Shown here one piece after another: positions 61,767 through 63,800 of a DNA stretch of 64,000 bases; positions within the stretch are counted from its first letter, which is position 1, and each line of letters opens with the position of its first letter. Under the pieces are notes generated by a model that was not told the origin of the DNA, did no database searches, and saw only the letters and a program-made list of their open reading frames with translations. The position numbers and the translations under genes are program-made. Origin of the DNA: Amoebophrya sp. A120 (taxonomy: Eukaryota; Protista; Dinoflagellata); assembly GCA_905178155.1 (NCBI GenBank), contig CAJINV010000012.1, forward strand, positions 988,004 through 1,052,003. The letters run 5' to 3'.

Positions 61767-63800
61767 TCACATTCCCATCATGCTTCCCAGCATCGGGTTT
61801 GCGAACCGCATGGCCCGGACCTCCGGATGAGGGACGTGTTCGAATATGGCGCTCTCAACTGTTACATTCTCAACTGTTACATATATTTGTCATGCAAAAA
61901 CGCTACTACTCTGAACACTGTCCAGCCTTTTCCGCATGACAACTTCTCGACGCGCTAGATAGTATTACAATCTGCTCCAAACCTGTCATGCAAAAGGCGC
62001 AGCGTTTCCCTTTCACTTTTGCCATTCTTGCATTACAAATTTCATGTAACAGTTGAGAATGTAACGTTTGAGAACGCTATATCGAAGGAGACGACTTTGT
62101 AGCTCAAATCCCGCAAGTACTCGTTTGATTTCTTGACTTGCTCCGTCTCCTTCTCGATCCACTTCGACCTGTTTTCCTTCCCCACCTTGTACCGGATAAA
62201 CGCGCCCTTGTTTTTCATTTGGTCGCAGTAGTTCGGCGCGGAAAAGATGGTGCACAGCTTTCCGTTGTGCTCGAGCTCGTACCTGGGGTTGCATTTGTTT
62301 ATTTCCCAATAAAAAAAAACAGTTATGCATCCATTTTCTTTGTGCGACAACATGAGGCATTAAAAGTCAACATCTTAAATTTCTTATCTATATACCCCTC
62401 ATCCTTCATTTCGTGACTTCTGACCACCATGCTGAGGTCATTCGTCTTCAGAAAATTGTCCGTTACGTCGTGGCCGAATGCCACTCCTACCCCGCGTTTA
62501 CTGGGATATCTACCGGGAAGCGGGCCGGGATCCGACCAGAGCATTTCCACTATTCTGCCACTGTCTGGGGGCTCGCCGATTCTGATATAGAAAAGCGTTT
62601 TGTCGACTACATGCGGAATTTATTATATATCAGGATCATAACCATAAGCGCGTGCGGTTACAAGTAACTACTTTGAAGATGAAGATGCAGAACCTGTGAC
62701 GATGGTTGTCTACGATTCAAATTCGTGGCTACTACCATGCGCACACCTTAAGTCCTCGTCAGCAACAGCATAGTCTTCACCTTCAGAGAGTATTCTTATA
62801 CCTGTCCTCTTTCTCCAGATCTTCGATAGTGACGTTGTCTGCGGAGAACAAGCCGCCATGAACGATGAAGATTTCCTTGTTCAGGACGTGGCAGAGCGGC
62901 AAGTAGCAAAACGTCTCGCAGAACAGGTTGTAGAGCTGCACGTCAAATTTGTTTCTGGTTTCCCCCTCAAACCCGTACAGCTTGTTCATGTTCCGCGTCT
63001 CGTGGTTGCCGCGGGCCAGGTGAACCTGTGATAATACACATCGCAATATTAGTATGAATTGCATTGCAAATTTCCTCATCATGACGAGAAATGGAATCTG
63101 TAATGCTGATTTTAGGAAAAAGATTTGTAATGCACAATTGCAAAAAAAAACAGCTGCTACGCACAAATCTCTTTTACCTTATCCGGGTAGCACAGTTTCC
63201 AGGCGAAGAGGGCGAGTATGACTTCTATCGAAAAGGACCCTCGATCCACGAAGTCACCGTTGAAGAGGTACGGGTTGGTTTCTGACGGGAATCCGTTCAG
63301 GGAGAAGATGTTCAGCAGATCATAATACTGCCCGTGCACATCCCCACACACCGTGAACTCGTCTTCCGCTTCCAGTTTCTGCACGGTCGTGTGCGTTTTT
63401 AGTAATTTCAGCACGTCCAGGACCATTTGGTAGGCGGATTTTTTGTGGATCACCTTCTGTTCCTTCATGTAATCCAGGAACGTTACGACCCAGTCGGAGG
63501 TAATTTGGTCCTTGCCCGGGTAGTATCAAATGCAAATATGTTTGGGTCTGGAAGATTGTCATGCTAGTCCGACATGACTCTGCGATCTGTATTGCCTGGC
63601 CACAAGCAGCCCCTCTTGTCTGTCATGCAAAAACGCAGTTTCTCATGCGTAATACGCAGCACAGAAGCACGATAATACTTGTCATGCTTGGCGGCGCATT
63701 ACAGTGCACTTGCTGTTCACTGACTTGCATCACAACTCTCCAGACCCAGACATATTTGCAATGCATAGGTAGATGGGCCCCTTGTAGGTATCCTCGATCT
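61767..63800 (-). CDS. PPP5: Serine/threonine protein phosphatase 5, catalytic domain (5' part continues beyond window)
   Basis: [41 protein letters not shown] and PP5-type tail [17 protein letters not shown] introns 62283-62395, 62582-62801, 63026-63177 plus two introners. Confidence 0.92.
61845..62081. mobile_element. Introner, family D
   Basis: Family D TIRs; perfect DR tcgaa. Confidence 0.95.
63026..63177 (-). other. Canonical GT-AG intron derived from a family B element
   Basis: AAG|GTAAAA...TCACAG|GTT joins [13 protein letters not shown]; core caaatttcctcatcatgac...tgtaatgctgattt...aaaagatttgtaatgca matches family B. Confidence 0.8.
63524..63767. mobile_element. Introner, family A
   Basis: Family A TIRs; perfect DR ggtag; join YKGPIY|PGKD. 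Confidence 0.95.

Follow-up and report, generated by a model that had tools for sequence, protein, structure and literature searches.

Can a hairpin-bearing introner come to sit in a gene as an ordinary GT-AG intron, and by which route would it do so? The question is raised by one intron of the PP5 gene in the window, by which we mean the whole 64,000-nt stretch of DNA analysed here. The stretch is assigned to Amoebophrya sp. A120, as the exon preceding the intron matches the deposited A120 protein at 100% identity; the A25 orthologue of PP5 shows 67% identity. The encoded PP5 protein (P0004) carries the Pfam domains Metallophos, PPP5, and TPR. The original prediction described a 152-bp intron with normal GT...CAG ends, a family-B core, and neither TIR nor direct repeat, and regarded it as an introner caught after conversion from a non-canonical to a canonical intron. 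The parts of the gene concerned are as follows:

63026..63177, minus strand: PP5 intron, 152 nt, GT-AG, phase 0 (K|V), with a family-B-derived body (sequence, RNA contig, profile)
63178..63518, minus strand: upstream PP5 exon, GKDQ...CYPDK (RNA contig, protein match)
62802..63025, minus strand: downstream PP5 exon, VHLARGNHE... (RNA contig, reading frame)

The intron is real and is normally spliced as a GT-AG intron. It starts GTAAAAG, ends CACAG, and lies between YPDK and VHLARGNHE. A contig of 4016 nt from run X3, matching with 0 mismatches, joins the two exons with 152 nt missing at 63024-63175, which is the intron 63026-63177 shifted inside a junction repeat; the skip is seen in this one contig, and the run is presumed to be RNA by guess. 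The repeat leaves the exact cut position free within 4 nt, and removal from the mRNA is exact, with GT and AG ends available as for any canonical intron. The deposited A120 protein is likewise continuous across the junction, and an X1 contig spans 62048-63552 unbroken, across the intron site. The length and ends given in the original prediction are thus borne out by both the sequence and the X3 contig, and the RNA confirmation of the junction that it had called for is in hand. Four of the 12 listed runs were compared with the window; in the other two of these, raw X10 reads covered repeats only, and X9 yielded short divergent pieces that carry no evidence on the presence of the intron. The same X3 contig also skips 62280-62392, 62582-62801, and 61840-62081, the last inside the PP5 coding sequence. 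As a separate observation, it runs unbroken for about 1.8 kb beyond the stop codon (59926-61770), which may represent read-through or an extended 3' UTR.

The window is rich in short elements whose inverted ends read TAT-N7-AAA and which are flanked by duplications of 5 bp, 39 being found in a first pass and 15 further candidates in a looser one. Family B is characterized by 5-bp target duplications and TAT...ATA ends, and two intact copies serve as comparators for the PP5 intron:

27217..27396, minus strand: intact family-B comparator with both TIRs and the duplication GGTTG (TIR/duplication search, frame)
50889..51041, minus strand: intact family-B comparator, duplicated site AGAGA, removed as a non-canonical intron of 158 nt (RNA, fold)
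63039..63143, minus strand: stretch of the PP5 intron homologous to family B, comprising the core and the inner part of the 3' arm (profile, blastn)

The claimed homology of the core to family B is amply supported. Over about nt 35-131, blastn matches the PP5 intron to 11 family-B copies, 50889-51041 among them, with identities of 72-78% and E values from 2e-16 to 9e-8. A profile made from 10 intact copies, with the PP5 intron left out, scores it at 59 bits (E 1.2e-17; model positions 33-142 of 157), against a best score of 6.8 bits among 500 dinucleotide shuffles. Homology to other introns, the repeated-sequence mark of A120 introner elements, is therefore present. Judged by its sequence, the PP5 intron is a copy of a family-B introner that has lost its hairpin ends. 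Its core is as similar to the intact copies as these are to each other (identity 0.81 in both cases); a second measure gives 0.79 to the intact copies, and 0.63-0.85 for the other 16 copies, in each of which the ends still pair. A core no more diverged than this would also suit a separate B-derived subfamily with GT and AG ends of its own, spreading as a TIR-less canonical introner, and TIR-less introner families exist in other systems (PMC9860276). Within the window, however, the 5' arm occurs just once by blastn; the X1 contigs among the matches listed that share the core to 63134-63146 continue into an ordinary TIR; and the bin with the 3' end of the intron lies near single-copy depth in X1. 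Such a subfamily is, in our estimation, highly improbable.

It is at the ends that the PP5 intron departs from its family, and the predicted absence of a TIR holds. End-to-end pairing reaches 7 of 14 positions, against 11-14 of 14 in all 16 of the remaining B-like copies, a figure biased by the use of TIRs to detect most of them. The predicted fold of the intron has no end-to-end helix (z -1.96), and that of 50884-51041 has one (z -5.57). An inverted repeat of the A120 kind (8-20 nt, TAT-N7-AAA, joining both ends) is absent; as its ends now read, the intron is to be classed as a derivative, not an intact member, of the A120 introner elements. Its ends comprise the following:

63144..63177, minus strand: 5' arm, 34 nt, with the GT donor, a weak left-TIR remnant, and a T-run (arm comparison)
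63163..63174, minus strand: 12 nt within the 5' arm that repeat a family-B core motif exactly, in inverted orientation (blastn, fold, shuffles)
63026..63038, minus strand: terminal 13 nt, including the CAG acceptor, where family B leads one to expect 15 nt plus 0-5 nt of duplication (profile)

These arms bear directly on the possibility that the B copy entered a GT-AG intron already in place, with later deletions trimming element and host alike, in which case the first 34 and last 13 nt would be host sequence. Consistent with such a history, the 5' arm aligns globally to B arms no better than shuffles do (identity 0.57, p 1.0), its T-run occurs also in a neighbouring canonical intron, and about 19% of A120 introns lie at positions shared with A25, nearly all of them canonical (PMC7789003). 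Yet both arm lengths fit those of family B, at 34 nt before the core (28-35 in B) and 35 nt after it (33-64 in B), and by these lengths the intron is the footprint of one element. Furthermore, the profile match ends 13 nt from the acceptor, and weak B remnants are detectable in both arms: among tests picked after inspection, a left-TIR remnant lies on one diagonal of the 5' arm (p ~0.035, weak), a local match falls in the 3' arm (p 0.027, weak), and the inverted core copy (nt 4-15 of the intron) stands out from shuffles (p ~0.005) and is predicted to fold back onto the core of the same intron. A local test of the 5' arm (p 0.23) and a diagonal test of the 3' arm (p 0.44) gave no significant B remnant. 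A gapped measure of arm identity was dropped as uninformative, since it returned 0.80 even for the PP5 intron. Separately, a 12-nt C/T-run motif is common to 63142-63153 in the PP5 intron and 62311-62322 in the 113-nt PP5 intron, possibly as a feature of canonical introns here and possibly by chance.

The age of the position provides a further angle on an older host intron. An ancestral position, shared with distant alveolates, had been named in the original prediction as the finding that would undo it, and was looked for among metagenome PP5 loci. Of 80 metagenome PP5 loci, 79 read through the site and one, L066, has an intron 6 codons upstream, although most of the 80 look like transcripts, a crude test flagging 14 of the 80 for introns, 10 of these with gaps of at least 47 nt. 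The site is empty in locus L003 and in 9 other loci that have intron-sized gaps elsewhere in PP5. Locus L003 is the sole member of the Amoebophrya clade among the gap-bearing loci: a tree built from 28 rows chosen among the matches places it with A120 and A25 (100/100), and its positions 1440-3950 are a genomic PP5 gene with GT-AG introns of its own at its own positions, in which the family-B profile finds no match. The position is not shared with any relative covered, but the L003 portion of the evidence is weak because that gene also lacks the other two canonical PP5 intron positions and sits on a long branch. The residue before the junction is K in A120, L003, and L001, and H in A25; with K common to the first three, the AG at the exon end is probably older than the intron. 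Considering arms and age together, we judge insertion into an older host intron to be unlikely.

The claim that direct repeats are absent did not hold, as AGGT is present at both junctions. This is the junction repeat already encountered in the RNA, and its meaning depends on the other canonical introns of the window:

63176..63179, minus strand: AGGT at the donor junction, repeat copy 1 (sequence)
63024..63027, minus strand: AGGT at the acceptor junction, repeat copy 2 (sequence)
54174-54385, 55383-55562, 55735-55909, 62283-62395, 62582-62801, and 63026-63177, minus strand: RNA-supported GT-AG introns (RNA)

The repeat measures 4 nt, where A120 introner elements are defined by direct repeats of 3-5 nt and the norm of family B is 5, and the match of duplicated bases at the PP5 intron is at best 4 of 5. 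AGGT is also ordinary splice context. Junction repeats of 3-7 nt occur in all 6 RNA-supported GT-AG introns among the matches listed (113-220 nt in length), and in 5 of these the next exon begins with GT; because G|GT acceptors are so frequent here and are a general dinoflagellate trait, AGGT alone is no proof of a duplication. Many such G|GT introns may be old insertions at G|GT sites, or the pattern may be a mere preference of splice context. No protein indel exists at the PP5 site relative to A25 and other orthologues, and the junction therefore did not slide.

More can be learned from the registers in which a family-B element could have entered. Owing to its TAT...ATA ends and 5-bp duplication, a B insertion is GT-AG at once wherever the duplicated site is GGTNN, AGGTN, NAGGT, or NNAGG. 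At the AAG|GTT site of PP5, six registers keep the junction: four are GT-AG at birth (duplications GGTTC, AGGTT, AAGGT, and TAAGG), two have one canonical end, being GT...TA (GTTCA) or TA...AG (ATAAG), and none is fully non-canonical. The GGTTC register needs the smallest number of changes to reach the 3' end now seen. When the arms were aligned globally to the ends predicted at birth for each of the six registers, no register stood out (3' p 0.08-0.15; 5' p 1.0).

The reading we favor, at a probability of roughly 0.6, is that the PP5 intron was GT-AG from birth by virtue of its duplicated site and subsequently lost a hairpin it did not need, since a 5-bp duplication at AAG|GTT would supply both GT and AG on insertion. 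In outline, a family-B element would have entered PP5 once the L003 lineage had diverged, duplicating GGTTC, AGGTT, AAGGT, or TAAGG, each of which would allow exact GT-AG removal. Recognition by the ordinary spliceosome would have made the end-to-end hairpin dispensable, and the ends may then have been rewritten: a short deletion may have taken away the outer left TIR, a small inverted copy of a core motif may have been added, and slippage in the T-run together with point changes may have shifted the ends toward GTAA and CAG. The main weaknesses of an intron canonical from birth are that, with the core so well kept but the ends so changed, abrupt events are required, rather than slow decay, and that G|GT junctions are common among canonical introns here and in dinoflagellates generally (PMC5032977). 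The H that precedes the junction in A25 also counts against it. The odds that we attach to this reading and to its three rivals are a matter of judgement.

The original prediction favored true conversion. In a half-way form of this idea, the element would have been born TA...AG (ATAAG) or GT...TA (GTTCA) and spliced by its hairpin, until one deletion completed the GT-AG pair, by exposing a GC or GT inside the left TIR, or an AG was gained. Two of the six registers are of the half-canonical kind required; the first bases of the intron, GTAAAAG, fall on one diagonal with GCAAAAG at TIR positions 9-15, the outcome expected from a junctional deletion of 8 nt; and a change of type has been proposed in euglenids (PMC4770533). 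Conversion nevertheless demands an extra, exactly placed event, and the same deletion explains the start under the born-canonical registers with the type unchanged. The length of the 3' end suits short registers better, and 41418-41626, the best candidate for an intermediate in the window, is still non-canonical in the deposited protein. Conversion consequently strikes us as rather improbable. Of the original proposal, derivation from family B, loss of the TIR, and GT-AG ends stand; a non-canonical stage is not the best reading, because AGGT and a 5-bp duplication make 4 of the 6 registers canonical from the start and none fully non-canonical, because 27217-27396 displays the born-canonical route, and because both examples offered in support failed.

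The first of those examples was the 55383-55562 intron, said to retain motif traces: GCATCACAAA is present, but ATTACAAAT is absent and no family profile matches. The second was a GT-AG alternative at 41418-41626 (41411-41627), which is indeed in frame but drops a residue kept in the deposited GCEEDVC and in the orthologue's GCERDVC. This element is B-like, with a strongly diverged core (17-20 bits) and both TIR arms kept (12 of 14 pairing). Its intronic duplication copy now ends CACAG, possibly a half-way state. The family-profile scan of GT-AG introns that had been suggested, applied to the 6 RNA-supported ones, recovered the PP5 intron alone: five element-family profiles found no match in the other 5, and blastn returned short matches only, the best at E 0.002. 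With a detectable element core in only 1 of 6, no series of intermediates is demonstrated.

An intron canonical from birth does have a counterpart in 27217-27396. This element lies in a 402-codon minus-strand ORF, and its host gene reads FGQIPEG / LLPTATIS...DKTGTLT; from the DKTGTLT motif we take the gene to be P-type ATPase-like. The element can be read as GT-AG from birth, its splicing being deduced from the reading frame. It is the 1 of 47 duplication-bearing elements that is GT-AG on the minus strand, where about 2.9% is expected from 5-mer frequencies, a count in which the minus strand was taken as sense and the strand of the gene was checked for some elements only. Candidates at 39109, 56288, 56762, and 63524 were rejected as further examples, being GT-AG on the plus strand only while the genes lie on the minus. 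These antisense-only cases (39109-39379, 56288-56577, 56762-57031, and 63524-63767) make 4 against 1 sense among the 47; the numbers are too small to read, although quicker TIR loss in sense-canonical copies would produce such a skew. Deposited protein P0124 maps to 39241, into element 39109-39379, and its gene model may have missed a splice. Elsewhere in the window, 57071-58760 is one family-B element stretched to 1690 nt, with ATCCT on both sides, left arm and core at 57071, and right TIR at 58728-58760; it encloses a tandem array of 12-nt units (57829-58092) along with a short hairpin element (57237-57336). An X3 contig with a loose end at 57071 resumes after 58760, so the whole appears to be spliced out.

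What might this single intron mean? A broader proposal can be framed, tentatively and with doubt outweighing belief: that the TIR hairpin is the non-canonical splicing signal in Amoebophrya, shed once a copy has GT-AG ends, either from the outset or after a single deletion that uncovers the GT concealed in the TIR; that the many canonical introns whose junction repeats are G|GT (5 of 6 here) represent fossil introners; and that a full series leads from hairpin to ordinary intron. The problem it addresses is that tens of thousands of non-GT-AG introns are removed in A120 without a detected U1 snRNA. If GT-AG copies truly lose their TIRs and non-canonical copies keep them, the genome holds a natural experiment on the need for the hairpin in non-canonical splicing. 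One intron cannot establish hairpin retention as a rule, but the idea is testable on the public genome. In essence, the PP5 intron is a single case that illustrates a published mechanism and a pointer to a genome-wide question of hairpin retention.

How does the PP5 intron compare with systems already described? The published A120 introners (PMC7789003, Farhat et al. 2021) offer the nearest likeness: the organism is the same by protein identity, and the window elements match both the TIR motif (TAT + 7 nt + AAA) and the short direct repeats reported. In the available part of that paper, 35% of A120 introns are canonical, 15% of those have an IR/DR organisation, and U1 snRNA was not detected. 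The PP5 intron falls outside that introner definition because its IRs are lost, and the same part of the paper holds neither IR-less introner-derived canonical introns nor an explanation of canonical copies by duplicated sites. Titles and abstract openings yielded no TIR-less introner-derived canonical introns in Amoebophrya, although supplements may bear on this, and no literature on PP5 intron positions was found. Supplement 3 of PMC12130899, a gene-versus-virus table, contains no string 'Amoebophrya' or 'A120', while other supplements to that paper may list A120 families.

Farther afield, the available portions of several papers supply individual components of the proposed history. Fungal introner-like elements (PMC4457414) have no TSDs or TIRs (PMC9860276), whereas the PP5 intron keeps its core and loses its ends. 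The euglenid intermediate introns (PMC4770533) are of the hairpin type, non-canonical, with GC-AG ends, and proposed able to change type; that, however, is a single case in another lineage, and the euglenid hairpin is kept. Repeated intron boundaries of dinoflagellates (PMC5032977) are 2-9 nt long, often AGG, and present at both splice sites, as at PP5, but are described without a transposon source, unlike the PP5 intron. Closest in mechanism is Polarella glacialis, in which introner classes 12 and 14 take their splice sites from a 5-nt (NAGGH, NNAGG) or 4-nt (AGGH) duplication in several registers (bioRxiv 10.1101/2020.10.14.339549). Such recruitment is the rule of a class in Polarella; in family B it is a minority occurrence (1 of 47), and most copies are removed as non-canonical introns. 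Both the recruitment of splice sites from target duplications and the decay of introners into ordinary introns are published processes.
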